Assembly (NCBI GenBank): GCA_964016885.1
Contig: OZ024747.1
Coordinates: forward strand, 70,742,001 to 70,806,000
Length of the DNA stretch: 64,000 nt
Source: Eledone cirrhosa
Lineage: Eukaryota
Direction: 5' to 3'
Numbering within the stretch: the stretch's first letter is position 1; every line of letters begins with the position of its first letter. Shown in pieces: positions 759 to 64,000 of the stretch. A model generated the notes under the pieces. It was not told the origin of the DNA and ran no database searches. It saw only the letters and a list, made by a program, of their open reading frames with translations. The position numbers and the translations under genes were made by a program.

Positions 759-1394
759 TTAATTGTAAGTTGTGATGTTGCTATTCCATTCATGTTTTCT
801 ATTTAATTTGGGTTGGAGTTCATTTATGTTTATTGCCTCTATGATTTGTCTAAACATTGCGTCTTTTCTGTGTGTAGATTCTATTTTTATTTCTATGTTC
901 TCTAATTTTCCCTTATGTTCTATTTTAGCATGTTGGTGGAGTATTGATGATTCTTTTTCATATTGCAGTTCTCGCCAGTGTTCATTTAACCGTTCTCCTA
1001 CACTACGAGCTGTCTCACCTATGTACACTATATTCTTATCTTTACATTGTCCTTCAGTACATCTTATGCTATATACTACATTTCTAGTTTTACAGTTAAT
1101 ATGGGGTCTTAGTTTACAGATTATGCATTTCTTATCTATACAGGGAGGTCTTTGAAAAGGGTATGTATTGCTAATAAGTGTTTTTATGGAGGTACCTGGT
1201 CTTTCTACTATCTTAATATTAAGCTTATCTTTATCTAGGGCCCTTCTAAATTTGTAAGCTAATTCACCTCTAGGGGTTGTATTGATGAACATTACACTCT
1301 GGTATTTATTGCTATCATACCATGAGTTTATTCTATTAACCTTATTCCTAGTTCTTTCTATTCTATTCCAAAATTTGCTCCTATACAAATTCAA
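759..1394 (-). CDS. PLE ORF C-terminus: RT thumb end, Cys linker and GIY-YIG endonuclease (partial)
   Basis: CIDKKCIIC linker; NVVYSIRC...C...VYIGET.R...RLNEH...SILHQH (GIY-YIG with CCHH); C-terminal EA..I....PKLN. Confidence 0.88.
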   Translation of the reverse strand: MNLYRSKFWNRIERTRNKVNRINSWYDSNKYQSVMFINTTPRGELAYKFRRALDKDKLNIKIVERPGTSIKTLISNTYPFQRPPCIDKKCIICKLRPHINCKTRNVVYSIRCTEGQCKDKNIVYIGETARSVGERLNEHWRELQYEKESSILHQHAKIEHKGKLENIEIKIESTHRKDAMFRQIIEAININELQPKLNRKHEWNSNITTYN

Positions 1395-1604
1395 ACTATA
1401 TTTCCATTATTTATTTTCAGAATAATTGATTATGAATAATTTTGAACCTCCAAATTTGTGGAAGAGACACGGATTTCTTCTTTGAATCCACGCTGGGAGT
1501 ACAAATAAGACCAGAAGATCAACTCCCAGAACAACAGGTGACTCACTGTCTCATCCAAAGACGTTCCCAGAGTCATGCAGACAAAGTTTCCAGAAAGGGA
1601 TAAT

Positions 1605-5446: not shown

Positions 5447-6553
5447 AACACCGATAACAAGTGGGGTGCCTCAGGGGACAGTCCTGGGACCACTACTGTT
5501 TTTGGTGGCTCTCTCGGACATGCCCTCTGTGGTGCATGCAACAACATCCCTCACTAGCTATGCTGATGACACTAAGGTAGCACAGGCAATCAAAAACCCG
5601 GCTGACGCTGCCCTCTTACAGCAGGATCTGGATGCCATATACAGATGGGCGGAAGAAAACAACATGCAGTTTAATGCTGGCAAATTCCAAGCCCTACAAT
5701 ACAAACCTACAAACACAAACACAAATATAGCGGAACACAGCTACACAGGACCAGGAGGGACCGATATCCCCGTGTCAAAATCGATACGAGACCTGGGCAT
5801 AGACATGAGCGATGATGCATCTTTTTCTTCACACATCATTAAGGTGGCGACAGCATGTAGACGATTCGCTGGCTGGATCTTGAGGACTTTCCTTACAAGA
5901 GATCGAGACACCATGTTGACACTGTGGAGGACTTTTGTCCTAAGCCGCCTGGACTACTGCTCCCAGCTGTGGTCACCCCATAGTGTCAAACTAACCACAG
6001 AGCTTGAGGCAATCCAGCGAAGCTACACCAAGAGGATTGCCAAGATGAGGGAGACAAGCTACTGGGAGAGGCTGAAGGAACTGAACCTCTACTCCTTGGA
6101 GCGAAGACGGGAGAGATACGCAGTGATCTACATGTGGAAAATCCTGGAGGGACTAGCACCAAACTTTGGCATTGGGAGCTGGACCAACCGTCGAACAGGA
6201 CGTCACTGTGTGGTGCCAAAGGTCCCGTCTTCCACATCTAGAATAAGGAGCAGGTATTGCAATAGCCTGGGATTCAAGGGCCCTCCACTCTTCAACAGGC
6301 TGCCGAGGCATCTGCGAGACTTGCATGACGTGGAGGTGGATGTCTTTAAGAAACATCTCGACACCTTGTTATCCAGGATCCCGGATGAGCCCACAGCAAG
6401 ACACGAGGGAAACCTAAGGGCAGCAGCAACAAATTCCCTCCTACACCAGTGGCCAACCTATACAGGCTGGAGATAAAATGTGTAGCAACAAGGGCGGTGC
6501 CCCAGCATGGCCTCAGCCGGATGGCTGAAACAGGTAAAAGAGTAAAAGAGTAA
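5447..6553 (+). mobile_element. 5'-truncated CR1-group LINE inserted in (TA)n
   Basis: RT motifs in ORF 5466-6476, a short 3' UTR and a (GTAAAAGA)n tail. Confidence 0.9.
5466..6476 (+). CDS. CR1-type reverse transcriptase, C-terminal half (partial, uninterrupted)
   Basis: [55 protein letters not shown]. Confidence 0.9.
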
Positions 6554-6654: not shown

Positions 6655-6719
<65 letters not shown>

Positions 6720-6844
6720 GGAGGTGAGTTTTATTGTAGTACAATAAAGCAATGCAGATATCGGATAAGAAGCACTCTACAGTTTGTAGAACTGGAGTAT
6801 ACATAATATATAAGAACAAAAAATGGTTAAAAGAGTTCCATGTA

Positions 6845-6911
6845 TTTTATTATGTGCATTTCAAAAACAAATATCATGTTGCAATAATATTTGTGTTTTC
6901 ATCAGATAAAA
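6845..6911 (-). ncRNA. Type-I hammerhead ribozyme, PLE family A, left arm
   Basis: Reverse complement of 7042-7108. Confidence 0.85.
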
Positions 6912-7041
6912 CAGGAGAACATGATATGAAGGCTAAAAAACACTTGTGGATAGTGCAGTTTTAAATCAACATATATGGATATGTTGATTTAAAACTGCAC
7001 TATCCACAAGTGTTTTTTAGCCTTCATATCATGTTCTCCTG

Positions 7042-7108
7042 TTTTATCTGATGAAAACACAAATATTATTGCAACATGATATTTGTTTTTGAAATGCACA
7101 TAATAAAA
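7042..7108 (+). ncRNA. Type-I hammerhead ribozyme, PLE family A, right arm
   Basis: Stem I TTTTAT/ATAAAA; core CTGATGA (7048-7054); stem II AAAC-ACAAATATTA...TGATATTTGT-TTT; GAAA (7091-7094); minimal stem III ATG-CA-CAT; triplet AUA, predicted cut after 7102. Confidence 0.87.
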
Positions 7109-7138
7109 TACATGGAACTCTTTTAACCATCTTTTGTT

Positions 7139-7210
<72 letters not shown>

Positions 7211-7399
7211 TACATATATACATATGCATATTCGAACAGTGGTACCTGACATTGTCCAATATGTAGAATTCTTCTTAACTTATAACACGTTTATACCCTT
7301 TTTTCTGCTTCAAGGGGTTATATCCTGATTTATTCACAACTATCTTATCATGATAATTCATGCTCTGGTTTTTTGTTTTAAAGACAAAACACAGTTTCG

Positions 7400-13989: not shown

Positions 13990-14161
13990 TAATCAAAGTT
14001 TAGAATATATAACATCAAAGCCAGAACACAAAAGCATTGTTAGTTAAATGGTTCTGGAGATAAAACATATAAGATACAATGAAAGTTAAATCAATTCTTA
14101 TCAAGGTTCAAATAAAGACTGCTTCCTCTTAAAGTAACTATTACAGTACTACTTTCTTATA

Positions 14162-17100
14162 AAAATAAGACTTGTCCTCAATAGAACTACGGTGACAGTA
14201 ATATCTGCGTACGCACCCCAATCCGGACTGCCTGGCACTATAAAAGACAGATTCTATGAGACACTGATGCTCACTACCTCCCAAATAACCGACAGTGACT
14301 ATATAATTATTGCAGGCGACCTAAATGTTGGACAACATTGTGACGGATACGACGAAATCCATGGAGGCTATGGGTTTGGTACTAGAAATGAGGAAGGCTC
14401 CAGAATCCTGGAATTCTGTGACGCAAATAACCTAACTATCTGTAACACTAACTTCAAAAAACGTGACAATCACCTGATCACCTATAGATCCGGGGAACAC
14501 ACAAGCCAGGTAGATTATATCCTTACCAGAAGACATGACAGAGTGTCTGTTGTAAACACTAAATCCCTCCCCCATGAAGAATGCACCTCCCAACATAGAC
14601 TGATAATTAGCGACCTAACAGTCAGGACGAGACGTACTAGACAACAGAAGAGGACTATCCTCAGGAGAAAAATATGGAAGCTAAAGGACCCCACAGCCAG
14701 AAATAAATTTAAAAGCATACTACTTGATGCTTTCGACAGTAAGGAAGAGCAATTAGAGTCGTACAATATAGAGGAGCAGTGGGAATTCCTGAAAGCAAAC
14801 CTGCTGATGGCGGCAGATGAAGTCTGTGGCTGGAGCAGGCCTGTAGGCAGGAGGAGAGTAACATGGTGGTGGAACAGTAAGGTGGAGGGGTGAATTAAGG
14901 CCAAAAAGCAGGCTTGGAAAGTATGACGGGATGGGGGAAGTAGAGAAGACTATCAAGTGGCCAGGAGGGAAGCTAGGCGACAAGTGAAATTCACAAGATG
15001 GGAAGCAGAGGAAAGAAAGTTCAAGCATGTTCTACAACGCAAGGACCAAAAACGTGAGGTGTTCAGGATTGCTAGGCAATGTGTCAAGGAAAACCGTGAT
15101 ATTGTCGGGGAGAAGTGTGTACTTAATGATGACGGCGTACTTGCCATCACCGACGCAGATAAGAAGGTAGCTTGGAAGTGTCACTACGAAAGGCTACTAA
15201 ATGAGGAGAATAAATGGGAGAAAGACAGTCTCCCCCACATCGACCCAATAGAGGGCCCAGCAGTGTTTGTCGAGGGTAGTATAATAAGTAAGGCAATCAA
15301 GGATATGAAGACGGGTAAGGCAGCTGGGCCTTCGGAAATAGTTGCTGAGATGCTGAAGGCATCTGGCACGGTGGGACACACCATGGTCACCCAGATAGTT
15401 AACCAAGTCGTACAGAATGGGGTTGTTCCGAAGGACTGGCGTAGCAGCATCATCGTTAACTGTTATAAGGGTAAAGGAGATGCCCTAGATAGGAGTAACT
15501 ATAGAGGCATTAAATTAATCGACCAAGTCATGAAGGTCACGGAAAAAGTAATAGCGCAACTAATCAGAGAGAGAATTGACCTAGATGAAATGCAGTTCGG
15601 GTTTGTGTCAGGCAAAAGTACCACAGACGCTCTTTTCATTGTACGACAACTACAGGAGAAGTACTTAGCTAAAAGTAAACCACTATACTTAGCTTTTGTC
15701 GACTTGGAGAAAGCCTTCGACAGAGTCCCCCGTTCCATTATCTGGTGGGCTCTTAGAAAACTAGGTGTCGACGAATGGCTTGTGAGAGCTATACAAGCCA
15801 TGTATAAAGAAACAGTCAGCAAGGTTAGAATTAACAACGAATATAGTGAAGAGTTTAGCGTAAAAGTTGGCGTCCATCAGGGCTCTGTTCTCAGCCCCCT
15901 ACTATTTATTATTGCCCTTCAGGCTATAACAGAGGAGTTCAAGACCGGTTGCCCATGGGAACTCCTATACGCAGACAACCTAACACTCATGGCTGAATCA
16001 ATGGCCGAGCTAGAGAAGAAATTCCAAACATGGAAGCACGGCCTAGAATCAAAAGGCCTTAAAATTAACCTGGCTAAGACCAAAGTTCTAGTTTGTAGGA
16101 AAGAAAATAAGGCGGCGGTCCCTTCCGGGAAGTGGCCATGCTCAGTGTGTAGGAAAGGCGTAGGTAGAAACTCCATTTTGTGTCAGAAATGCAAAGTATG
16201 GGTGCATAAAAGATGTAGTGGGATCACAGGTAAGCTAACTAAGAACATAGATCTTTTTACATGTGGCCGATGATCTGGTGCAATAAGTAGCAGCAAGTGC
16301 CCACAAAATACTAGCTCTTTCAACTGCGCAGAGGGCTCTATAGAAATAGTGGACAGCTTCCGTTACCTGGGTGACAAAATCAGCAGTGGGGGAGGGTGCT
16401 CTGAAAGTACAGTAGCTAGAGTCAGAACTGGATGGAAAAAGTTCAGAGAGCTTATACCACTATTAGCCGCTAAAGGGTTCTCCCTAAAAATGAAAGGCAG
16501 GTTGTATGATGCCTGCATACGAACAGCAATGTTGCATGGCAGTGAGACCTGGGCATTGTGTGCAGAGGATATATGCAGACTAGAGAGGAACGAAGCTTGC
16601 ATGCTCCACTGGATGTGTAATAGTAATATACGTGAACGGCAAAGCATAAACGAACTAAGGAAAAAATTAGAAATAAGAAGGATCAGATGTTGTTTACTCG
16701 AGAGAAGGCTACGTTGGTATGGACACATGATGCGCATGAAAGTCGATAGCTGTATAACAAAGTGCAGGGCAATAAAGATAGACGGTAACCACGGAATAGG
16801 CAGACCTAGAAAAACCTGGGACGAGCTGATAAACTCAGACCTCACACACTTACACCTCTCCAAGACAATGTCACTGGACCGAGACCTTTGGCGGTACTCA
16901 GTAATAGAGAAGACCCGCCTTACCTAAATACATAGTAAAACCTACTACAGTCAGTAGGCATCTCTAACAAAATACACCCCCGTCCCACCACCCCCACCCC
17001 ATCCACACCGCCCCCTTCTACGTAAAGTTATGTTGGTGCCACACCATCCAGGCCGAAACAAATGAGATCGTGTAGGTGTCACGACAAAAAAACACACAGT

Positions 17101-23955: not shown

Positions 23956-24328
23956 GATAGAAATAGATACATATATATATGTTTACATGTCTATATACTC
24001 TATGTGTAATGCACATATTCACACCAACTCAGTTAGTCCTGTACTGTATATATATATACAGATATTTATTTTGTGTTGATAGTGCAAATGACTCTTTATA
24101 TAGTCATTATTTGTTCTATAGAATTAATTGATATATTATGAGGTTAGAATTGTATTAGTGTAAGGGGTGTTGAATTGATGTAGGATATTGAGGTACTGTT
24201 CTTAGGTTATAGCAGGCATGGGCAACCTTTTTTGAGAAGTGGGCCGCTTGAGATATATATGCATATATGTATACATATATGCATATATAATATATAAGAA
24301 CAAAAGATGGTTAAAAGAGTTCCATGTA

Positions 24329-24395
24329 TTTTATTATGCACATTTCAAAAACAAATATCATCATGCAATAATATTTGTGTTTTCATCAGATAAAA
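24329..24395 (-). ncRNA. Type-I hammerhead ribozyme in the 3' pLTR of PLE family A, sense to the ORF
   Basis: Minus strand TTTTAT-CTGATGA-stem II-GAAA-TGTGCA-TA-ATAAAA. Confidence 0.85.
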
Positions 24396-24764
24396 CAGGA
24401 AGACATGATATGAAGGTTAAAAACACTTGTGGATAGTGCAGTTTTAAATCAACATATGAGAAGTAGTTTTAGATTGATGTGTGATATTGGGAAAAAAATA
24501 TTTTATTTTGAGGGGGGGTGGGGTGGAAAGGATGAAAAAGAGGAGGAGATGAGAGTAAACAATGGAGAGGGAGGAGTATAATGAGGAAGGATGAGATAGG
24601 AGGAGAGATGGGTGATAGAGAGAGAGAGATAGCTTTTATAACTGAGAAAGATATATTGTTTTACATAGAGAGGTTGAAAACCGTTGGAAGATAATGTATA
24701 AATTAAAAGAATTTGAAAATTAACGAAGAGAAAAATAATGTAAAGTTAAGGTTTGTATATTGAG

Positions 24765-24930
24765 GGGTTTAATAATATGTGCGATGGAAAGAAAATGTTA
24801 ATATGTATTAAGAATAATATTTAAGGGTTTAATAACATGTGCGATGGAAAGAAAAAGTTAATATGTATTAAGAATGATATTTAAGGGTTTAATAATATGT
24901 GCGATGGAAAGAAAATGTTGATATGTATTA
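24765..24930. repeat. 60-bp tandem repeat, about 2.8 copies, in the PLE 3' UTR
   Basis: GCGATGGAAAGAAAA recurs at 24781, 24841 and 24901. Confidence 0.9.
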
Positions 24931-25328
24931 TTAAAAAGAACAACAGGTAATTTAAGTAAGGATATATTGTGAGATGAGCATGAATGAGTTAGATGAAAGG
25001 GAGAAAAGAATAATGAATTGAGGATGAATAATCTAACGTCAAAAAAGTGTTTATGTTTACGAAGGATTTTTACAAGGTGATATAGGGTAAGAATGTATTG
25101 TATTATGTAATAATTGATTCTATGTTAGGCAACAGTGAGAAAAGGTACAGATTAGGGGTTAGACATTAAAAGAAAAATAGGAGCGATATAGAATGAGTAA
25201 CAAGTATTATATAATGTATAATAAAACCTTTGAAATAAGGTAGAAAGATGGGTATATTTTTAAAGAAGTGTATATATATATATATGTGCCTTTGAGAAAA
25301 AGATTCTAAATTGATAAAGATTTGGATA

Positions 25329-27465
25329 TTAGCTGTATACTTTGTGGAATGTTTTGTGGAATTTATGCAAGCAGATAGAAAACCAGTCAGTGCGTCTATT
25401 TATTATAGAATCTAAATTAGATATAATGGTAAATTTTTCATTTAGACAGAGATTGCAAATCTTGGATAGAGAACTGTTCAAGTATGGAGACGCAGAATAA
25501 ACCTTCTTCCAAAAGATGCTATATTTAATATTTTTGTCTTTCAAGGACCATATGAGTTCTGAGAGAGCCGTGTTGGTTCTTTTAAGTTTGTATTTAAAAG
25601 ACGAATGATGGTTATGAAGACGAGCTTTAAAAGAGGTGGAAGTGGAGCCAAAATAGGTGAAGGAATTGGTGTCAGTTATAACTTTACATTCGTAAATTAA
25701 GTTTTTATCAAGACAATGGTTGTTGAGAGGACATTTATTTTTAACAGGGCAATTGCAATTGCGATTAGAGAGATTATTAACGAGTGACCTAGTGTTATCT
25801 ATAGAATGAATTGGATTGGAGAAGTTATTTGCGATAGGAATAATAGTTTCTTGATTTAGAATGGGATTAAGAACATTTAGCAAAGTTGTGTTTGACGTTG
25901 TATTTGGGTTTGCAGAAATTAGCCTAGGGTTTACAATGACGTCGGGAGTACTATTACTATTATTATGATATTCAGTGTTGGAAGGAAGAGATTTAGTATT
26001 TAGTATTTTATTGTTGTGTTTAGAGATAATGTTGGAAATGTTGGAGGATGTAGAATAGGAAAATTTTATAGTGTGTTTGTTAAATATTTTACTATAGATA
26101 TGTGAGGGAGGGAAGCATTTATTTAAGGCACTAAAGAATAATTTAGGAATATTATTATTAATAGAGATGGAGAAAGGAGCATTATACCAGATTATGTTTT
26201 TGTATCTAGGTCTTTTATTAAAGTTATTGGAATGATCATGATTAATTATTCTACTGTAAGTTCTTCTAGAATTTGATTCTTTACTATATTTGATTTTATC
26301 AGGATAGCCGGCTTTAGAAAGCGCGTTATTATAGTAATTGGCGTTAGCATCAAAGATGTTTTTATTAGAAGATAGGTTAGATATTATTTTTCCAATATTA
26401 CTAACTATAGCATTCTTGATATTAGTAGGATGGTTAGATTTAAAGTTAACATAATTTAGGTTCTCATTGTTTTTATGGTAAGGGTAATATAGGCCAGTGT
26501 CAAGATTAAGAGATACATCCAAGAAACTAGTTTGATGCTGTTATCAAATTCAATTTTTAGGTTATGTTGGTTAAAGAGATTACGTATATTGTTCTTAATA
26601 ATATTAAGGTTAACTATGTTGCAATTTAAGATAGTAAAGAGTCCATCGTCACGATAAATTCCACCGCGAAGTTGAGGAATTTTCCGACTTAAAGAGTTCA
26701 AAATAAAGATACCAATTAAATCTGTCAATTGGGATGAATCGGATGCTTCCATTGTGATGTCGAAGTTGTTAGAGGTATCGGCTCTGGTCCAATATTCGTT
26801 GATGAACTCTAGGATGGTTTTACGTGCGGTGAGAATGATGTGAAGTTCATCTGTGGTGATGTCAGAATATTTAAGTGCGAAAGATAGAGCATTATTGAGA
26901 AGTGAAGGCGAAATAGAAGAATAGTAGCTGGCAATATCAAATTGAACAAATTTTAGTTTGTTTTTATTATTCAATTTGTTGAACCAGCTAATCACTTCAG
27001 AAGTACCAAACCATAAATTTAGGTTCAAAGAAGAGCAATTAGAACGAATCTGTGGGATAATTCTATCCAAGATGGCTTTACTAACAACCCCCAGATCTGA
27101 TTTAGAGGGGGCGATTAATCTAACAGGTAGTTCAGTGCGAAAATTGTTTTTGTGATCCTTGAGATTTATCCTCGGAGTTCTTGAGAGGAATGGTTCGGTC
27201 TTTTTTTCAATGCCAAGTTTTGACATAATCTCAGAGGCTTCAAAGTTTATGTATTCTAAATTATCATGGTTGGTTTTATGATATTTTTTCCTAACTTCCG
27301 TTAGGATAAGGTTTTTATAATTATCCTTGGAAATACCATATAAGTTATTGGTTTTGTCAGAGTGGACTAAAACATTTTTTGAGGAATTTAGGTTTGAAAT
27401 TGTGTTCTTGAGATTTACAAGGTGTTCTTGTCCTTTGTAAGGGTATCTCTTGAATTTAAGATTTT
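25329..27465 (-). pseudogene. PLE RT-GIY-YIG ORF with one frameshift near 26525
   Basis: SDKT upstream of the 26456-27226 ORF in the same frame, RLIAPSKS, QFDIASYYSSI, YRDDG; then (FL)DVSLNL, SNHP, CNCPVKNKC, LIYECKV...YFGST...FKARLHNH, CNLCLNEK. Confidence 0.9.
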
Positions 27466-27562
27466 TTATATATTATGTATACTCCAGTCCTACAAACTGT
27501 AGAGTGCTTCTTATCCGATATCTGCATTGCTTTATTGTACTACAATAAAACTCACCTCCTAC

Positions 27563-28646
<1,084 letters not shown>

Positions 28647-29412
28647 GGTTATACTTTGGGAGGGTCATGTTGCCAATAAGAAACACACGCACCAGTTGCT
28701 TTCACTTCAATTTATTATGTATTTATAAATTTACAAATCTATAAATTTATAAATTTCTGGTTGGTTGGTTGGTTCCACAACCAGATAGTTGTTTATATAT
28801 AGTCATAGTCCTTTCGTCACACACTCTGTGACCTCTTCAGTGACTGGGGATTCCTTTCTTTGTTTCTGTGCCTTTCCTTTCTTCTGTCCTACGCCATTTT
28901 GTTTCTGTGTGTGTGTTGTGTGCTCAGTTTGCGCATGCGCCTCACCCGGGTGTCTGTGTGTGTTTGTGTTCATTTATCTATTTGTTTATTTATTTACATG
29001 TTGTTGGTTGGTTGTTTGTTCTTTGTGTGTGTGTGTTTTCATTTTGTCCTTAATTGTAAGTTGTGATGTTGCTGTTCCACTCATATTTTCTATTTAATTT
29101 TGGTTGTAATTCTTTTAGCATAAAAGAATTACAACCAAAATTAAATAGAAAATATGAGTGGAACAGCAACATCACAACTTACAATTAAGGACAAAATGAA
29201 AACACACACACATAGAACAAACAACCAACCAACAACATGTAAATAAATAAACAAATAGATAAATGAACACAAACACACACAGACACCCGGATGTGGCGCA
29301 TGCGCAAACTGAGCACACAACACACACACACAGACCCTCCCAAAGTATAACAATATCGGTTTCAACACACGATTTCAGATAAAGAATCTTGCTAATCAAA
29401 TTCAGAAACGAA
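28647..29412. mobile_element. Fold-back mini-element from the 3' end of PLE family B (arm 28647-29117, loop GCA, internally deleted arm 29121-29351, tail 29352-29412)
   Basis: TAATTCTTTTA-GCA-TAAAAGAATTA centre. The arm encodes [20 protein letters not shown], as in ORF 759-1394. TA arrays on both sides. Confidence 0.92.
28801..28845 (-). ncRNA. Minimal type-I hammerhead ribozyme, PLE family B
   Basis: Minus strand AGTCA-CTGAAGA-G-GTCAC-agagtgt-GTGAC-GAAA-G-GA-C-TA-TGACT. Stems I and II are perfect and the triplet is CUA. Confidence 0.87.
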
Positions 29413-34929: not shown

Positions 34930-35019
34930 AGGGTAAACATTGATGCAATTCAATTCAAGCACTCAACGTATATATATATATATATATATAAGTGGTTATA
35001 CAACAGTTAGTTCACCATA

Positions 35020-35059
35020 CCGAGAACAATTGTTTCACCTTAGCGGATCTTCAGCTCGG
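35020..35059 (-). ncRNA. Minimal type-I hammerhead ribozyme, family C, left arm
   Basis: Minus strand CCGAG-CTGAAGA-TCCGCTAAGGT-GAAA-CAATTG-TT-CTCGG. Confidence 0.85.
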
Positions 35060-35094
35060 GATATGTATGGTTATAGGAACAGGAAGGACACATC

Positions 35095-35134
35095 CCGAGC
35101 TGAAGATCGGCTAAGGTGAAACAATTGTTCTCGG
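35095..35134 (+). ncRNA. Minimal type-I hammerhead ribozyme, family C, right arm
   Basis: CCGAG-CTGAAGA-TCGGCTAAGGT-GAAA-CAATTG-TT-CTCGG. Stem I is perfect, stem III is the palindrome ACAATTGT and the triplet is GUU. Confidence 0.82.
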
Positions 35135-35228
35135 TATGGTGAACTAACTGTTGTGTAACCACTTCTACCTAACTCATCCCTTGGACTGAGTGCTCTACCA
35201 CTACGGATATTACCTTCCAGTGTTCCAC

Positions 35229-35404: not shown

Positions 35405-35750
35405 TCATCATTTCATCATTCATTTCATTTTACGTCCGCTTATTCCCTGCTTGCAAAGGTGGGATGGGAACTGATGCTGGCTTGATTTCTACAGCTGGAT
35501 GCCCTTCCTAACACCAACCTCATTTACAGTGAGTGCTGGGTGCTTTTTTACCGTGACACCTCCACGACCACTTTACAGTGGAATGAGAGGGACCCCAGTC
35601 CTATCATCTCATTTCTACGGCTGAGTAAACTGGAGCAATGTGAAATAAAGTCTCTTGCTCAAGGAAACAACACATCACCCAGTCTGAGAATTGAACTCAC
35701 AACCTTTCGATTGCAAGGGCAATGCTCTAACCACTAAGCCATGTGCCTCC
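35405..35750 (-). mobile_element. tRNA-headed, RTE-tailed SINE
   Basis: Reverse-complement copy of 20-360. Confidence 0.9.
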
Positions 35751-35761
35751 AATTGGTACTA

Positions 35762-36295: not shown

Positions 36296-36483
36296 ATATA
36301 GAAGAGCTTCTACGGGACTAGAACTGCTTCATTTGTGAGAAATCATCAGGAAGCTCTGATGATTTCTCACGAATGAAACAGTTCTAGTCCTGTAGAATCT
36401 GTTCTATATGAAAACATTTATACTCTGCTATGTATGGAGTACCTTACTTACTGTGGTTACCTCCGATTCAACCCAGAATAACT
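36296..36483. mobile_element. Fold-back mini-element family D (arms 36296-36349 and 36356-36409, tail 36410-36483) with hammerhead core relic
   Basis: 54-bp inverted arms and loop GAAGCT. The right arm starts CTGATGA-TTTC-TCAC-GAAT-GAAAC. TA-flanked. Confidence 0.8.
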
Positions 36484-56182: not shown

Positions 56183-56864
56183 ATCCGACTTCCACACCGA
56201 TCTCAAGCTGTGGCACACCGCCCAGGCTTTGCTCTTCCTCTCAACCACATCATCTTCCGTATTCCCAATCTTTGCTCCCAAATACAGGAAGTCCTCAACC
56301 AATTCTAGCGGCTTCCCGCCTACATTGGTGATCCCCTCTGGCTTCTCAACATTCTCTACCAGATATTTTGTTTTAGTCTCATTCACTCTGTGTTGCTGTA
56401 CGGATCTGAAATTTGGAAACTGACCAATAAACTCACTCAGATGGTGGATGGGTGCTACACGAGAATGCTGAGGATGGCTGTGAACATTAATCAGTATATA
56501 CTGAAGCTGAAAAACTCAGAGCTGTATTGGAGCCTCCCAAAAGTCAGCTCGAAAGTGACACAGAGGAGACTGAGGTTAGCTGGACATGCTCACCGGCATC
56601 AAGAGTTGACATTGCACTCAGTGCTCCTGTGGGAGCCCGTACATGGACACACTGGAAGAGGAAGACCAAGGATAATGCATGCTGATGCCCTAAGGACAGA
56701 CACTGGTCTGTTGGAGATGCAGGACATGGCAGCGATAATGAGGGACAGAGACCGCTGGAGAGAACTCGTCCATGGATCTTGGGAATACATTCTATTCTAT
56801 TCTAGGGAGGGTAAAATTCCCAAGATCCATGGACGAGTTCTCTCCAGCGGTCTCTGTCCCTCAT
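56183..56864. mobile_element. RTE-clade LINE 3' fragment of a different family, with 5' inversion and 3' fold-back, in (TA)n
   Basis: Minus 56183-56388 encodes NETKTKY...VEDFLYLGA...WKSD. Plus 56385-56790 encodes SVLLYGSEIW...RLRLAGH...GRGRP...DRDRWR. Then an (ATTCT)3 tail and a 49-bp perfect inverted copy. Confidence 0.88.
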
Positions 56865-58165: not shown

Positions 58166-58511
58166 GGAGGCACATGGCTTAGTGGTTAGAGCATTTGCCT
58201 TGCAATCGAAATGTTGTGAGTTCAATTCTCAGACCGGGTGGTGTGTTGTTTCCTTGAGCAAGACACTTTATTTCACATTGCTCCAGTTTACTCAGCTGTA
58301 GAAATGAGATGATAGGGACCCCAGTCCCTATCATTCCACTGCAAGGTGGTCCTGGAGGTGTCACGGTAACAAAGCACCCAGCACTCAGTGTAAATGAGGT
58401 TGGTCTTAGGAAGGGCATCCAGCTGTAGAAATCAAGCCAGAATCAGTTCCTGTCCCACCCTTGCAAGCAGGGAAAAAGCGGACGTAAAATGATGATGATG
58501 ATGATGATGAT
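58166..58511 (+). mobile_element. tRNA-headed, RTE-tailed SINE
   Basis: Direct copy of 20-360. Confidence 0.9.
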
Positions 58512-58581: not shown

Positions 58582-61400
58582 TGTAGGTTTTACTTTGTAT
58601 TTAGGTAAGGCGGGTCTTCTCTATTACTGAGTACCGCCAAAGGTCTCGGTCCAGTGACATTGTCTTGGAGAGGTGTAAGTGTGTGAGGTCAGAATTTATC
58701 AGCTCGTCCCAGGTTTTTCTGGGTCTGCCTACTCCGTAGCTACCGTCTATCTTTATTGCCCTGCACTTTGTTATACAGCTGTCATCTTTCATGCGCATCA
58801 CGTAACCATACCAACGTAGCCTTCTCTCGAGTAAACAACATCTGGTCCCTCTTATTTCTAATTTTTTCCTTAGTTCGCTTATGCTTTACCATTCACGTAT
58901 GTTACTATTACACATCCAGCGGAGCATGCAAGCTTCGTTCCTCTCTAGTCTGCGTATATCCTCTGAACAGAATGCCCAGGTCTCACTGCCATGCAACATT
59001 GCTGTTCGTATGCAGGCATCATACAACCTGCCTTTCATTCTTAGGGAGAACCCTTTAGCGGCTAATAGTGGTATAAGCTCTCTGAACTTTTTCCAACCAG
59101 TTCTGACTCTAGCTACTGTACTTTCAGAGCACCCTCCCCCACTGCTGATTTTGTCGCCCAGGTAACGGAAGCTGTCCACTATTTCTATAGAACCCTCTGC
59201 GCAATTGAAAGAGCTAGTATTCTGTGGGCACTTGCTGCTACTTATTGCACCAGAGCACCGGCCACATGTAAAATCTATGTTCTTAGTTAGCTTACCTGTG
59301 ATCCCACTTCATCTTTTATGCACCCATACTTTGCATTTGGGACATAAAATGGAGTTTCTACCTACGCCTTTCCTACACACTGAGCATGGCCATTTCCCAG
59401 AGGGGACCGGCGCCTTATTTTCTTTCCTACAAACTAGAACTTTAGTCTTAGCCGGTTAATTTTAAGGCCTTTTGATTCTAGGCTGTGCTTCCATGTTTGG
59501 AATTTCTTCTCTAGCTCGGCCATTGATTCAGCTATGAGCGTTAGATCATCTGTGTATAGGAGTTCCCATGGACAGCCGGTCTTGAACTCCTCTGTTATAG
59601 CCTGAAGGGCAATAATAAATAGGAGGGTGCTAAGAACAGAGCCCTGATGGACACCAACTTTTACGCTAAACTCTTCACTATATTCTTTGTTAATTCTAAC
59701 TTTGCTGACTGTTTCTTTATACATGGCTTGTATAGCTCTCACAAGCCATTCGTCAACACCTAGTTTTCTAAGAGCCCACCAGATAATGGAACGGGGGACT
59801 CTGTCGAAGGCTTTCTCCAAGTCAACAAAAGCTAAGTATAGGGGTTTACTTTTAGCTAGGTACTTCTCCTGTAGTTGTCGTACAATGAAAAGAGCGTCTG
59901 TGGCACTTTTGCCTGACACAAACCCGAACTGCATTTCATCTAGATCAATTCTCTCTCTGATTAGTTGCGCTATTACTTTTTCCGTGACCTTCATGACCTG
60001 GTCGATTAATTTAATGCCTCTATAGTTACACCTATCTAGGGCATCTCCTTTACCCTTGTAACAGTTAATGATGATGCTGCTATGCCAGTCCTTCGGAACA
60101 ACCCCATTCTGTATGACTTGGTTTAGTATCCGGGAGACCATGGTGTGTCCCACCGTTCCAGAGGCTTTCAGCATCTCAGTAACTATTTCCGAAGGCCCAG
60201 CCGCCTTACCCGCCTTCATATCTTTGATTGCCTTACTTATTATACTACCTTCGACTAACACTGCTGGTCGATGTGGGGGAGACTGTCTTTCTCCCATTTA
60301 TTCTCCTCATTTAGAAGCCTTTCGTAGTGACTCTTCCAAGCTACCTTCTTATCAGCGTCAGTGATGGCAAGTACGCCTTCATCATTAAGTACACACTTCT
60401 CCCCGACAATATCACAGTTTTCCTTGACGCATTGCCTAGCAATCCTGAACACCTCACGTTTTTGGTCTTCGCGTTGTAGAACATGCTTGAACTTTCTTTC
60501 CTCTGCTTCCCTTCTTGCGAAGTACACTTGTCTCCTAGCTTCCCTCCTGGCCACTTGATAGTCTTCTCTACTTCCCCCATCCCGCCATATTTTCCAAGCC
60601 TGCTTTTTGGCCTTAATTGACTCCTCCACCTTACTGTTCCACCACCATGTTACTCTCCTCCTATCTACAGGCCTGCTCTTCCTTACTGTCGAAAGCATCA
60701 AGTAATATGCTTTGAAATTTATTTCTGGCTGTGGGGTCCTTTAGCTTCCATATTTTTCTCCTGAGGATAGTCCTCTTCTGCTGTCTAGTACGTCTCGTCC
60801 TGACTATGAGGTCGCTAATTATCAGTCTATGTTGGGAGGTGCATTCTTCATGGGGGAGGGATTTAGTGTTAACAACAGACACTCTGTCACGTCTTCTGGT
60901 AAGGATATAATCTACCTGGCTTGTGTGTTCCCCCGATCTATAGGTGATCAAGTGATTGTCTTGTTTTTTGAAGTTAGTGTTACAGATAGTTAGGTTATTT
61001 GCGTCACAGAATTCCAGGATTCTGGAGCCTTCCTCATTTCTAGTACCGAACCCATAGCCTCCATGGATTCCGTCATAGCCGTCACAATGTTGTCCAACGT
61101 GACCGTTTAGGTCGCCTGCAATAATTATATACTCACTGTCGGTTATTTGGGAGGTAGCAAGCATCAGTGTCTCATAGAATCTGTCTTTTATAGCGCCGGG
61201 CAGTCCGGATTGGGGTGCGTACGCAGATATTACTGTCACCGTAGTTCTATTGAGGACAAGTCTTATTTTCATTATTCTGTCATTCACTCTATTTACGTCT
61301 ATTATCTTATCTGGCCACTTTTCTGCTACTATGATTTCTACTCCACCCAGCCCATTGTCATTTCCCACCCAGAAAAGATTATAGCATCATTCTTTACCCA
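58582..61400 (-). mobile_element. RTE LINE of the same family as 14162-17315; truncated at both ends and disabled
   Basis: ORF pieces 60661-61368 (APE), 59434-60297 (RT, YTDD), 58886-59179 and 58601-58801. Frameshifts and deletions. Confidence 0.95.
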
Positions 61401-61786: not shown

Positions 61787-64000
61787 TATCATCATCATCA
61801 CCGTTTTACGTCCGTTCTTCCACGCTAGCATGGGTTAGACGGGTTGTCCTGTTGTGGGCAGTGTCTGGTCGGCTGACCATGCCTTGCTCATACAGGAACT
61901 GATCTGGCTTGATTTCTACAGCTGGATGCCCTTCCTAACACCAACCTCATTTACAGTGAGTGCTGGTGCTTTTTCGTGGCGCCTACACGTCCACTTTACA
62001 GTGTGGGCTGGGTGCTTTTTTGCCGTGGCACCTCCACGACCACCTTGCGGTGGGGGGGGGGGCATATTGTTTATATGCTTCAGCATGTACCCATGGGAGG
62101 TCGGGTACCCTGTATTACTGCGTGACGCCAGAAGTCACGGTCGTGTGTCATTGACTTTGAGAGCTGTAGTTGGGTAAGGTCGGCTTTTATCACCTCATCC
62201 CAAGTCATCTTGGGTCTCCCCACTCCGCGGTTTCCATCAACTTCTAGTGCTCTGCACCTTTTTATGCAGCTGTCATCCTTCATACGCATCACATGTCCAT
62301 ACCAGCGTAACCGCCTCTCCTGCACGCAGCATTTGATTCCTCTTATGCTCAGTCTCTCTCTCAATTCATTTATGCTTTGTCGTTCACGTATATTACTGTT
62401 ACACATCCATCGGAGCATGCAGGCTTCGTTTCTCTCTAATCTACGTAAGTCTTCCACCTTCAGCGCCCAGGTCTCACTACCATGCAACATCGCTGTTCGG
62501 ATACACGCATCATACAGTCTGCCTTTCATTCTGAGGGAGAAGCCTTTTGCAGCTAGCAGTGGTAGTAGTTCCCTAAACTTCTTCCATCCCGTTCTTACCC
62601 TAGTTATTGTACTTTCTGAGCACCCACCTCCGTTGCTAATTCGGTCACCTAGGTAGCAGAAGCTGTCTACTGTTTCTACAGGGCCCTCCCAGAGATTGGT
62701 GGTACTTGTTTCCTGTGGTTGTTTGCTTGCTGTTTCAGCACAGCTGCTGCATGTGAATCCTACATTCTTAATTAAGCTTCCTGAGATCCCGCTACATCTC
62801 TTGTGTACCCATTGTTTGCATTTGGGGCAAAGAATGGAGTTCCTACCTACACCTTTCCTACATACTGAGCAAGGCCATTTCCCTGAGGGGATCTGGGTTC
62901 TGTTTTCTCGTCTACTTATAAGGACCTTAGTCTTTGTCATGTTGACTTTGAGGCCCTTTCTCTCTAGTCCCTGCTTCCAGGTTTGGAATTTATTCTCTAG
63001 TTCTACCATAGATTCAGCTATGAGTGCGAGGTCATCAGCATACAGGAGTTCCCATGGGCATCCGGTCTTAAACTCCTCCGTTATTGCCTGCAGGACTATG
63101 ATGAACAGGAGAGGGCTAAGAACAGAGCCCTGGTGGACCCCAACCTGTACGCTAAATTCCTCGCTATACTCATTGCCAATCCTAACTTTGCTGACTGCTC
63201 CCCTATACATGGCTTGTACCGCTTTCACAAGCCATTCATCTACTCCTAGTTTTCTAAGAGCCCACCAGATTACTGCACGTGGAACTCTGTCAAAGGCTTT
63301 CTCAAGGTCGACAAATGCCAAGTAGAGTGGCTTACTTTTAGCTAGGTACTTTTCCTGTAATTGCCTCACAAGGAAGAGCGCATCAGTGGTGCCTTTCCCT
63401 GGTACAAACCCAAATTGCATCTCGTCTATATTCACCCGGTCCCTAATCAGCTGTGCTATAACTCTTTCTGTTACTTTCATGACCTGGTCCATCAACTTTA
63501 TACCTCTATAGTTTCCTCTATCTAGTGCATCGCCTTTACCTTTGTAGCAGTTGACAATGATGCTACTGCACCAATCTTTTGGTATGGCCCCCTCTAGTAT
63601 TACCTGGTTAACGATACGTGTGGTTATAGTGTGACCTACAGACCCAGATGCCTTCAGCATCTCGGCAGCTATACCCGATGGACCGGTTGCCTTCCCTATC
63701 TTCATATCTCTGATTGCCTTACTTACTACGCTGCCGCTGACTTGTACTGCTGGTCCCTCTATAGGGTCTACGTGGGGTAGGGTCTCTTCTTCCCATGCAT
63801 TCTCCTCATTTAGTAATCTATCATAATGACTCTTCCATGCATCTTTCTTCTCAGCACTTGTGAGGGCAAGCTCACCTTTATCATTCCGGATACACTTCTC
63901 TCCAATGACATCACAACTATCTCTGACACACTGCCTCGCAATCTTGAATACCTCCTGTTTCTGGTCCTCACGTTGTAAAACATGCTTGAATTTTCTATCC
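61787..64000 (-). mobile_element. RTE LINE of a sister family with complete 3' end, running off the window edge
   Basis: (CAT)n tail on the + strand, 3' UTR and uninterrupted ORF. Confidence 0.95.
62080..63999 (-). CDS. RTE reverse transcriptase with PHD-like finger (partial, open to the window edge)
   Basis: YRGIKL, QFGF, FVDLEKAFD, GVHQGSVLSP, intact YADD, CSVC...CPKC...HKRC...CSSC. Manual translation of 63706-63999 shows no stop. Confidence 0.93.
   Translation of the reverse strand, partial: DRKFKHVLQREDQKQEVFKIARQCVRDSCDVIGEKCIRNDKGELALTSAEKKDAWKSHYDRLLNEENAWEEETLPHVDPIEGPAVQVSGSVVSKAIRDMKIGKATGPSGIAAEMLKASGSVGHTITTRIVNQVILEGAIPKDWCSSIIVNCYKGKGDALDRGNYRGIKLMDQVMKVTERVIAQLIRDRVNIDEMQFGFVPGKGTTDALFLVRQLQEKYLAKSKPLYLAFVDLEKAFDRVPRAVIWWALRKLGVDEWLVKAVQAMYRGAVSKVRIGNEYSEEFSVQVGVHQGSVLSPLLFIIVLQAITEEFKTGCPWELLYADDLALIAESMVELENKFQTWKQGLERKGLKVNMTKTKVLISRRENRTQIPSGKWPCSVCRKGVGRNSILCPKCKQWVHKRCSGISGSLIKNVGFTCSSCAETASKQPQETSTTNLWEGPVETVDSFCYLGDRISNGGGCSESTITRVRTGWKKFRELLPLLAAKGFSLRMKGRLYDACIRTAMLHGSETWALKVEDLRRLERNEACMLRWMCNSNIRERQSINELRERLSIRGIKCCVQERRLRWYGHVMRMKDDSCIKRCRALEVDGNRGVGRPKMTWDEVIKADLTQLQLSKSMTHDRDFWRHAVIQGTRPPMGTC

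Follow-up and report, generated by a model that had tools for sequence, protein, structure and literature searches.

A predicted type I hammerhead, palindromic in the stem III of its family form, closes a putative Hydra-type Penelope-like element

What carried three hammerhead motifs into the 64,000-nucleotide stretch of DNA analysed here (the window), and how would an RNA with so short a stem III cut itself? An earlier note on this DNA had described a full core, a long stem II, a stem I extendable by GTTC/GAAC, and a stem III that reads TGCACA near 7 kb and TGTGCA in the copy near 24 kb. Our scan of the 64-kb window recovered every one of these features. It placed type I hammerhead cores at 7048-7102 (plus strand), 6905-6851 (minus) and 24389-24335 (minus), with CUGANGA, GAAA, an NUH triplet and stems I and II in place; all three motifs have an 8-bp stem I, a 36-nt stem II and an AUA triplet (Table 1). 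A descriptor demanding a stem I of at least 8 bp matched the window three times, as against a mean of 0.01 and a maximum of 1 in 100 block-wise dinucleotide shuffles, and when relaxed to a 5-bp stem I it found one extra motif, at 28840 (minus; shuffle mean 0.02). Single-sequence folding was unexceptional (z of -0.55 to -0.96 in all five folds of the motif), and a pattern scan of metagenome contigs gave 0 matches. Rfam returned no hammerhead match for the motifs; because it also missed the window's other hammerhead (28840-28806), we regard this test as insensitive here. The miRNA-like matches that Rfam did give to the palindrome near 7 kb all fell below the gathering score and simply reflect a long hairpin.

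Table 1. Coordinates of the hammerhead motifs, the insertions that hold them and the parts of the parent element
Feature	Positions	Strand	Remarks
(TA)n target, left flank of insertion 1	6658-6716	.
Tail of insertion 1, ~90 nt	6717-6805	-	downstream of hammerhead arm; ends at (TA)n
Bulged hairpin at tail start	6772-6798	-	4 bp, 2-nt bulge, 5 bp, 5-nt loop, then GC; minimum-energy fold and descriptor
Left arm of fold-back	6806-6974	-	equals right arm except at 6822; runs on into tail
Mirror hammerhead motif, left arm	6843-6913	-	stem III TGCACA; predicted cleavage after 6851
Palindrome centre, 4 nt	6975-6978	.	at the element's self-complementary CATATG site
Right arm of fold-back (element 3' end)	6979-7147	+	stops at internal TA motif ~45 nt past predicted cleavage site
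Complete type I hammerhead motif, right arm	7040-7110	+	predicted cleavage after 7102
GTTC/GAAC extension of stem I	7033-7036/7115-7118	+
Stem I, 8 bp	7040-7047 paired with 7103-7110	+
Core CTGATGA	7048-7054	+	scan
Stem II	7055-7090	+	14 bp, one C.U mismatch, 36 nt
GAAA	7091-7094	+	scan
Stem III TGCACA	7095-7100	+	scan
Stem III segment ATGCACAT	7094-7101	+	CG at 7097-7098 in the family form
AUA triplet		+	predicted cleavage after 7102
(TA)n-type target, right flank of insertion 1	7148-7228	.
3' untranslated region and hammerhead end of long copy	24291-25328	-	includes CATATG 24453-24458
Third hammerhead motif	24327-24397	-	stem III ATGTGCAT at 24336-24343 (TGTGCA); predicted cleavage after 24335
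Second ORF piece	25329-26540	-	RT motif FLDV, thumb, linker CxCX5C, GIY-YIG-like endonuclease, CxxC, CxH, no CCHH
First ORF piece	26456-27472	-	reverse transcriptase, DKT and YRDD; 5'-truncated by ~80-90 codons
Inverted tail of long copy	27473-27562	+	ends at same base as 6717, adjoins (TA)n; hairpin 27481-27507

The copy near 24 kb reveals the carrier: its hammerhead is the end of a 5'-truncated Penelope-like element (PLE) set in (TA)n, whose two open reading frame (ORF) pieces are split by a single frameshift near 26525. The reverse transcriptase (RT) piece has 3557 relatives at E<=0.001, the best 43% identical, and 75 of the 151 proteins searched also match the second piece. Full-length relatives reach about 80-90 residues further at the N-terminus than this copy does. 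Among 31 matches of at least 650 aa, the linker CxCX5C is present in 23, CxxC..EK in 25, CxH in 28 and RW[KR] in 17, the RWK region falling in the N-terminal part that the copy near 24 kb is missing. Two of the ten matches that were looked up carry names, both from Argonauta hians, which makes an octopod host likely. Pfam gave no RT or GIY-YIG match for either ORF piece, and a sequence search of the PDB did not recognise the RT. The 3' untranslated region also contains a unit of about 60 bp in three tandem copies (24757-24930).

The Hydra clade of PLEs with a C-terminal endonuclease (EN+), which includes Hydra-1_Obim, is diagnosed in section 11 of PMC8557442 by DKT, CxCX5C, CxxC, CxH and the lack of CCHH, and the same paper describes for it a canonical type I hammerhead some 40 nt short of the 3' end, insertion into (TA)n and inverted 5'-truncated copies with a one-sided tail (Craig et al. 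2021). The window element has each of these: an RT followed by a C-terminal GIY-YIG-like endonuclease, DKT replacing DKG, the CxCX5C linker, CxxC and CxH around E and N, and, in 2 of 2 insertions, a (TA)n target and a canonical hammerhead near the 3' end. Its GIY-YIG-like stretch is without the inner CxxC and without the following H-H, and is succeeded by CxxC..EK and CxH. It differs from the Hydra elements in the available rows of File S2 in a hammerhead that matches none of the rows, Hydra-1_oBim included, which marks it as a different family; in a stem II of 14-15 bp as against 3-7 bp in the Hydra rows; and in a stem III that is a perfect 8-nt palindrome, unlike those rows. The tail of about 90 nt compares with the 30-40 bp stated for PLEs in the same source, and the retained part of the element is already 3.2 kb long. 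Classed by motif and by eye, the putative ribozyme is what closes the 3' end of a new Hydra-type family.

Although the family is new, its design is known: a palindromic stem III and dimer cleavage are already published for PLE hammerheads, and further work on the minimal, dimer-type forms was reportedly done by Lunse et al. in 2016. File S2 of PMC8557442 already lists a perfect 8-nt palindromic stem III, that of PLE-X1_cBra. The minimal forms, as set out in the available text of Cervera and de la Pena (2014; PMC4209133), share with the window motif the type I topology, a very short stem III with a palindromic loop and a long helix II, and they too occur as dispersed single copies from truncated elements and as opposite-strand pairs lying close together; those with a palindromic loop 3 are described as cleaving as dimers with low activity (PMC4209133; PMC6765202). 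They typically have G10.1-C11.1, whereas here an A-U pair (A7055-U7090) closes stem II directly; they typically have an extra unpaired base after A9, which the window motif lacks; and the 8-bp stem I of the window motif is longer than is typical for them. Unlike them, the window family has natural CG, TG and CA forms and thus offers a ready allelic series. Metazoan non-LTR retrozymes also have a type I hammerhead related to PLE ends, but, as far as the available text describes them (10.64898/2026.07.22.740005), they are tandem non-coding arrays, whereas the window contains no tandem units and one of its copies is continuous with an RT-endonuclease ORF.

The history of the family was followed in sequencing runs, 24 of which were listed for the query 6717-7141; 20 contain part of it, and none is on record as RNA. 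We used 8 of the 24, with X15-X20, of small word shares, among those left out. Reference 6979-7141 collected contigs from X1 (2304), X4 (10) and X7 (20), and from X21 0 reads in about 1/100 of the run; reference 24288-24500 collected contigs from X2 (3271), X8 (288), X5 (30) and X9 (5).

The earlier note had counted three copies. Three motifs do exist, but two of them are the arms of one palindrome, a fold-back of 342 bp (6806-7147) whose arms differ at 1 of 169 positions, and we therefore count two independent insertions. The copy near 24 kb differs from the right arm in 9 of 169 aligned columns. Both arms read AC at 7074-7075, where X1 reads TG in 602,005 and 601,807 of 602,089 depth units; being common to both arms and absent from more than 99.9% of X1 depth, AC indicates either that the arms come from one source sequence or that they were homogenised.

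The ends of the two insertions are also alike. In both, the direct side stops at the TA motif about 45 nt after the predicted cleavage site, and in both only the inverted side has a tail, whose last base, next to (TA)n, is the same; copying of both target strands, each from its own internal start, would give such one-sidedness. The segments 6717-6816 and 27562-27463 match at 98%, and loose ends of runs X4 and X9 show the junction of arm and tail again. Nothing but the tail is inverted in the long insertion, where a ATATATAA overlap joins it to the truncated ORF; the arms of insertion 1 overlap over their full length. The counterpart of the fold-back centre in the long copy is CATATG (24453-24458), and 24458 is where 11 X2 contigs reverse direction; contig depth in the aligned runs continues beyond 24457. 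Since CATATG is self-complementary, two nascent strands ending in it could pair. All the inserts span the predicted cleavage site, so the template was either uncut there or re-ligated. The window copies themselves are likely dead relics.

Which form of stem III is the family's own? The earlier note had deduced TGCGCA from two copies that do not have it, and the runs bear this out: TGCGCA makes up 92-100% of depth in all four informative runs, and TGCACA and TGTGCA are rare. At 24340, A>G accounts for 1,414,315 of 1,432,790 units of X2 depth (98.7%, 100 contigs), 5606 of 5623 in X8, 2174 of 2230 in X5 and 10.2 of 10.2 in X9; at 24339, C>T accounts for 13,025 of 1,376,140 in X2 (0.95%, 11 contigs), 0 of 5273 in X8, 116 of 2230 in X5 and 0 of 10.2 in X9. 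Read on the ribozyme strand, CG has a share of about 97.8% in X2, 99.7% in X8, 92.3% in X5 and 100% in X9 (three organism labels), and X2 also has 0.95% CA and 1.3% TG or other; these shares are summed contig depths rather than copy counts, and as contigs drop rare variants, those of CA and TG are lower bounds at best. Positions 15.2-16.2 together with loop 3 are palindromic in the family form and not in the TGCACA copies (cleavage sites 6851 and 7102). A TGCACA consensus with a 2-bp micro-inversion to give TGTGCA was also considered and is ruled out by the positive CG rows in X2, X8, X5 and X9. We discarded the seeming lack of variants at 7097-7098 in X1, X4 and X7 as well: the table has no rows past 7081, though X4 contigs inside 7091-7141 differ by 2-3 letters, and for X1 it has no row for a 17.6% X2 variant at the place equal to 7112, though the sample is the same.

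Each window variant is a single transition from CG, the two on opposite strands, and to this extent the derivation by CpG decay that the earlier note proposed stands, with methylation as its presumed cause. In six repeat pairs of the window, transitions affect 44 of 266 CpG bases as against 113 of the 1691 remaining columns with C or G, a 2.5-fold excess (p 6e-7), and the window's CpG observed/expected ratio is 0.40. TGCACA and TGTGCA likely arose by cytosine deamination at CpG. Octopus transposons are reported, in the available part of PMC9476566, to be little methylated, yet more so than repeat-free intergenic DNA, and by analogy this low methylation would speak against a simple methylation account of the changes. 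In insertion 1 both arms carry CA, so the change either predates the duplication of the arms or was copied across.

Variation in the stems of X2 is compatible with a folded RNA. We considered all 23 places that vary at 1% of X2 depth or more. Six lie in stems I and II (7041, 7059, 7065, 7067, 7070 and 7081), and all six keep pairing, each by a one-sided change; the chance of this is about 0.03 if all changes are transitions and shared descent is ignored. The sole core variant in X2 is at the free N7 position (7052). In a sister form, seen as the loose end of 9 X1 contigs, inspection by eye shows stem II paired along its whole length, with A-U in place of the C.U mismatch. The earlier note had asked for compensatory changes in the stems; among the stem variants of the aligned runs we saw pairing-compatible, one-sided changes and no pair altered on both sides. 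The family varies in the GTTC/GAAC extension, 7035-7037 being altered in 22-34% of X2 depth. An X8 loose end could be taken for a second sister subfamily in which compensation turned a stem I pair from A-U to G-C, but we withdrew this reading because the loose end differs by A>G changes confined to one strand, the pattern of hyper-editing.

The stem III 8-mer has a computed homodimer helix energy of -10.5 kcal/mol as CG, -6.0 as TG and -3.7 as CA, and the heterodimers have -9.0 (CA/TG), -8.6 (CG/TG) and -5.1 kcal/mol (CG/CA). We consider it probable that the family has a Hydra-type PLE hammerhead whose palindromic stem III would lead to dimer cutting in tandem only, combined with insertion from two starts on both strands. 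The common stem III, AUGCGCAU, is self-complementary, and two ribozyme copies would likely pair through it in a helix of 8 bp. Cutting would then require copies in tandem; a lone copy would remain uncut, in keeping with inserts that continue past the cleavage site. Nicking of both (TA)n strands is likely the work of the element's protein, and RNA would be copied from two fixed internal starts separated by some 90 nt, one start giving the direct arm and the other the inverted arm with its tail. In insertion 1 both copies would have stopped at CATATG and been joined there, producing the palindrome. Several points count against this explanation: the stems show no two-sided compensatory change, G10.1-C11.1 and the extra base after A9 are absent and stem I is long, the hammerhead of an anole PLE cut only with protein and was dispensable for insertion, and octopus transposons are reported as little methylated. 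In addition, the CpG is altered in 2 of 2 window insertions as against about 2% such variants in X2 depth, a comparison in which rare variants are dropped by contigs and the window's species may differ from the X2 organism.

A precedent for the insertion steps is Poseidon of Anolis carolinensis (PAc), for which Frangieh et al. (2024; PMC11167929), in the available text, describe nicking and extension of both strands of AT-rich DNA and a tail that equals the interval between two internal starts. Common to both systems are the AT-rich target, the extension of both strands, two internal RT starts and a template that need not be cut by the hammerhead. PAc belongs to another PLE clade, its start sites sit in an AC-rich stem loop inside the ORF, and, unlike that region, the window tail is apparently non-coding and opens with a bulged hairpin.

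PAc also supplies an argument for a different reading, in which the hammerhead cuts as a monomer once the element's own protein binds and stabilises the 2-bp stem III, the palindrome being incidental or a mere help. The PAc hammerhead is described as cut only in the presence of protein, endonuclease-dead protein included (PMC11167929); minimal PLE hammerheads cut poorly even as dimers (PMC4209133); and Hydra hammerheads in the available rows of File S2 often have a stem III of 3-4 bp, a loop of 1-3 nt and imperfect palindromes. We nevertheless think this reading unlikely. In a monomer the CG would be part of the loop, with nothing to hold it constant, yet 92-100% of depth retains it where nearby places vary at 17-54%; the computed energy of the 2-bp monomer hairpin is the same, +4.7 kcal/mol, for CG, TG and CA; and neither window copy has a second CpG in its arm.

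Quite unlikely, in our judgement, is a role for the palindrome in pairing two element RNAs, a protein dimer then writing one template into each end of the break, with cutting secondary or absent. Insertion 1 does have overlapping arms that share one source sequence, and making them takes two templates or else two passes; the inserts span the predicted cleavage site, and the available text of PMC11167929 reports hammerhead mutants to be without effect on insertion in vitro and predicts the protein to be a dimer. However, both arms of insertion 1 are CA, the weakest homodimer, and copying went ahead all the same, provided that the source already had the change; moreover, the family preserves the whole catalytic core, a sign of selection on cleavage. 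That the palindrome is an assembly or library fold-back artefact, the element having no such form, is hardly credible: no aligned contig spans the locus, reference 6979-7141 yields no strand-change joint and the arms are identical at 168 of 169 positions, but one base does set the arms apart, their ends fall at separate sites that the family as a whole uses, this CATATG is also the turning point of 11 X2 contigs, and inverted truncated copies are described as typical of PLEs.

The family bears on a wider question. The role of PLE hammerheads is called unclear in PMC8557442, and PMC11167929 finds them dispensable for insertion in vitro, as far as the available parts of these papers go; the family is test material with three natural forms of stem III. 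The CA and TG forms are exact complements, and are therefore predicted to be weak alone and to work together, a clean test of dimer cleavage. The two insertions, for their part, would record both copying start sites of a Hydra-clade element.

Hydra-type Penelope enzymes are the closest mobile relatives of telomerase, and the tail may hold a signal for one of them. Its opening, 4-7 bases beyond the direct ends, is ACTC followed by a 5-bp stem, the 2-nt bulge, GAGT and GC, and a descriptor of this hairpin matches only the two tail copies in the window (shuffle mean 0.02), a result that is circular for this window. Six Hydra consensus sequences in File S7 of PMC8557442 were compared by eye, and three have the same fold with different inner stems: Hydra-2_Amil and Hydra-2_Ajap in the tail, and Hydra-1_Ajap twice at its 5' start. 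The fold is imperfect at both ends of Hydra-1_Crog, Hydra-1_Amil stops before the tail, and Hydra-1_Obim is ambiguous. That a complete element has this hairpin at its 5' start points to the tail as the leader, included by read-through of a tandem or circular RNA, and we regard such an origin from the element's 5' leader as likely. The words hairpin, stem-loop and bulge are absent from the main text of PMC8557442, and the literature searched contained no description of a tail hairpin, although subscription papers, Repbase entries and the supplements of PMC11167929 and PMC4209133 may have one. We put forward tentatively, as one possible reading, that the hairpin is a start-site signal of Hydra-type enzymes, conserved in shape from corals and sea cucumbers to a cephalopod-like genome, and that it accompanies a tandem-only hammerhead with mutual rescue of CA and TG; the hairpin would have kept its shape and not its inner sequence, with the palindromic hammerhead just upstream. 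Lying beside the first start site, it is a candidate recognition signal open to mutation in assays of a type already in use.

Run X8 (88 million letters, from a sample other than that of X2, its kind not on record) differs from X2 in a further respect. When aligned to 24288-24500 it has 14 places at 1% or more that are below 1% in X2, and A>G or T>C accounts for 12 of these, 9 of them shown and 3 deduced from the counts, compared with 11 of 23 places in X2 (Fisher p 0.035, or 0.076 with the shown rows only). The shown A>G and T>C sites have a 5' A or T in 9 of 9 cases, against 71 of 115 (p 0.013). The excess is on both strands, and one loose end has clustered A>G. ADAR editing of double-stranded RNA, according to the available text of PMC5625713, is very high in octopus and depleted of 5' G. 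The X8 pattern hints at something resembling A-to-I hyper-editing of the family's RNA. Three A>G variants in stem II (7059, 7065 and 7081) occur at 3-43% of depth in X2, a probable DNA run, and could be editing fixed by retrotransposition.

The window holds several other mobile elements. A second PLE family, also in (TA)n, occupies 368-1406 and 28648-29340; its GIY-YIG ORF (762-1406, minus strand) has CCHH and a CxxxxCxxC linker and is Neptune-like by motif. The hammerhead at 28840-28806 (minus) belongs to it, with a fold-back centred near 29119, and the core is decayed in its copy at about 500-560. Around insertion 1 there are nested inverted repeats, 4877-4943/7233-7299 (67 bp) and 5247-5351/6553-6657 (about 105 bp), 98% identical and each bounded by TA runs; they enclose a LINE RT fragment (5448-6476) as well as the palindrome, and are possibly the ends of other TA-targeting elements. 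LINE copies at 14159-16945, 58583-61272 and 62102-64000 have an APE endonuclease, an RT and a C-terminal PHD finger (Pfam E 5.8e-6), and two of the three are 94-95% identical. A tRNA-derived SINE of about 320 bp is found at 20-336, 35430-35751 and 58166-58488 with 92-93% identity, its head being recognised as tRNA by Rfam at 58175-58232. Short palindromes with 84-87% arm identity lie at 34987-35167, 36296-36409 and 56738-56864, and these further palindromes suggest that fold-back insertions are common in this window.
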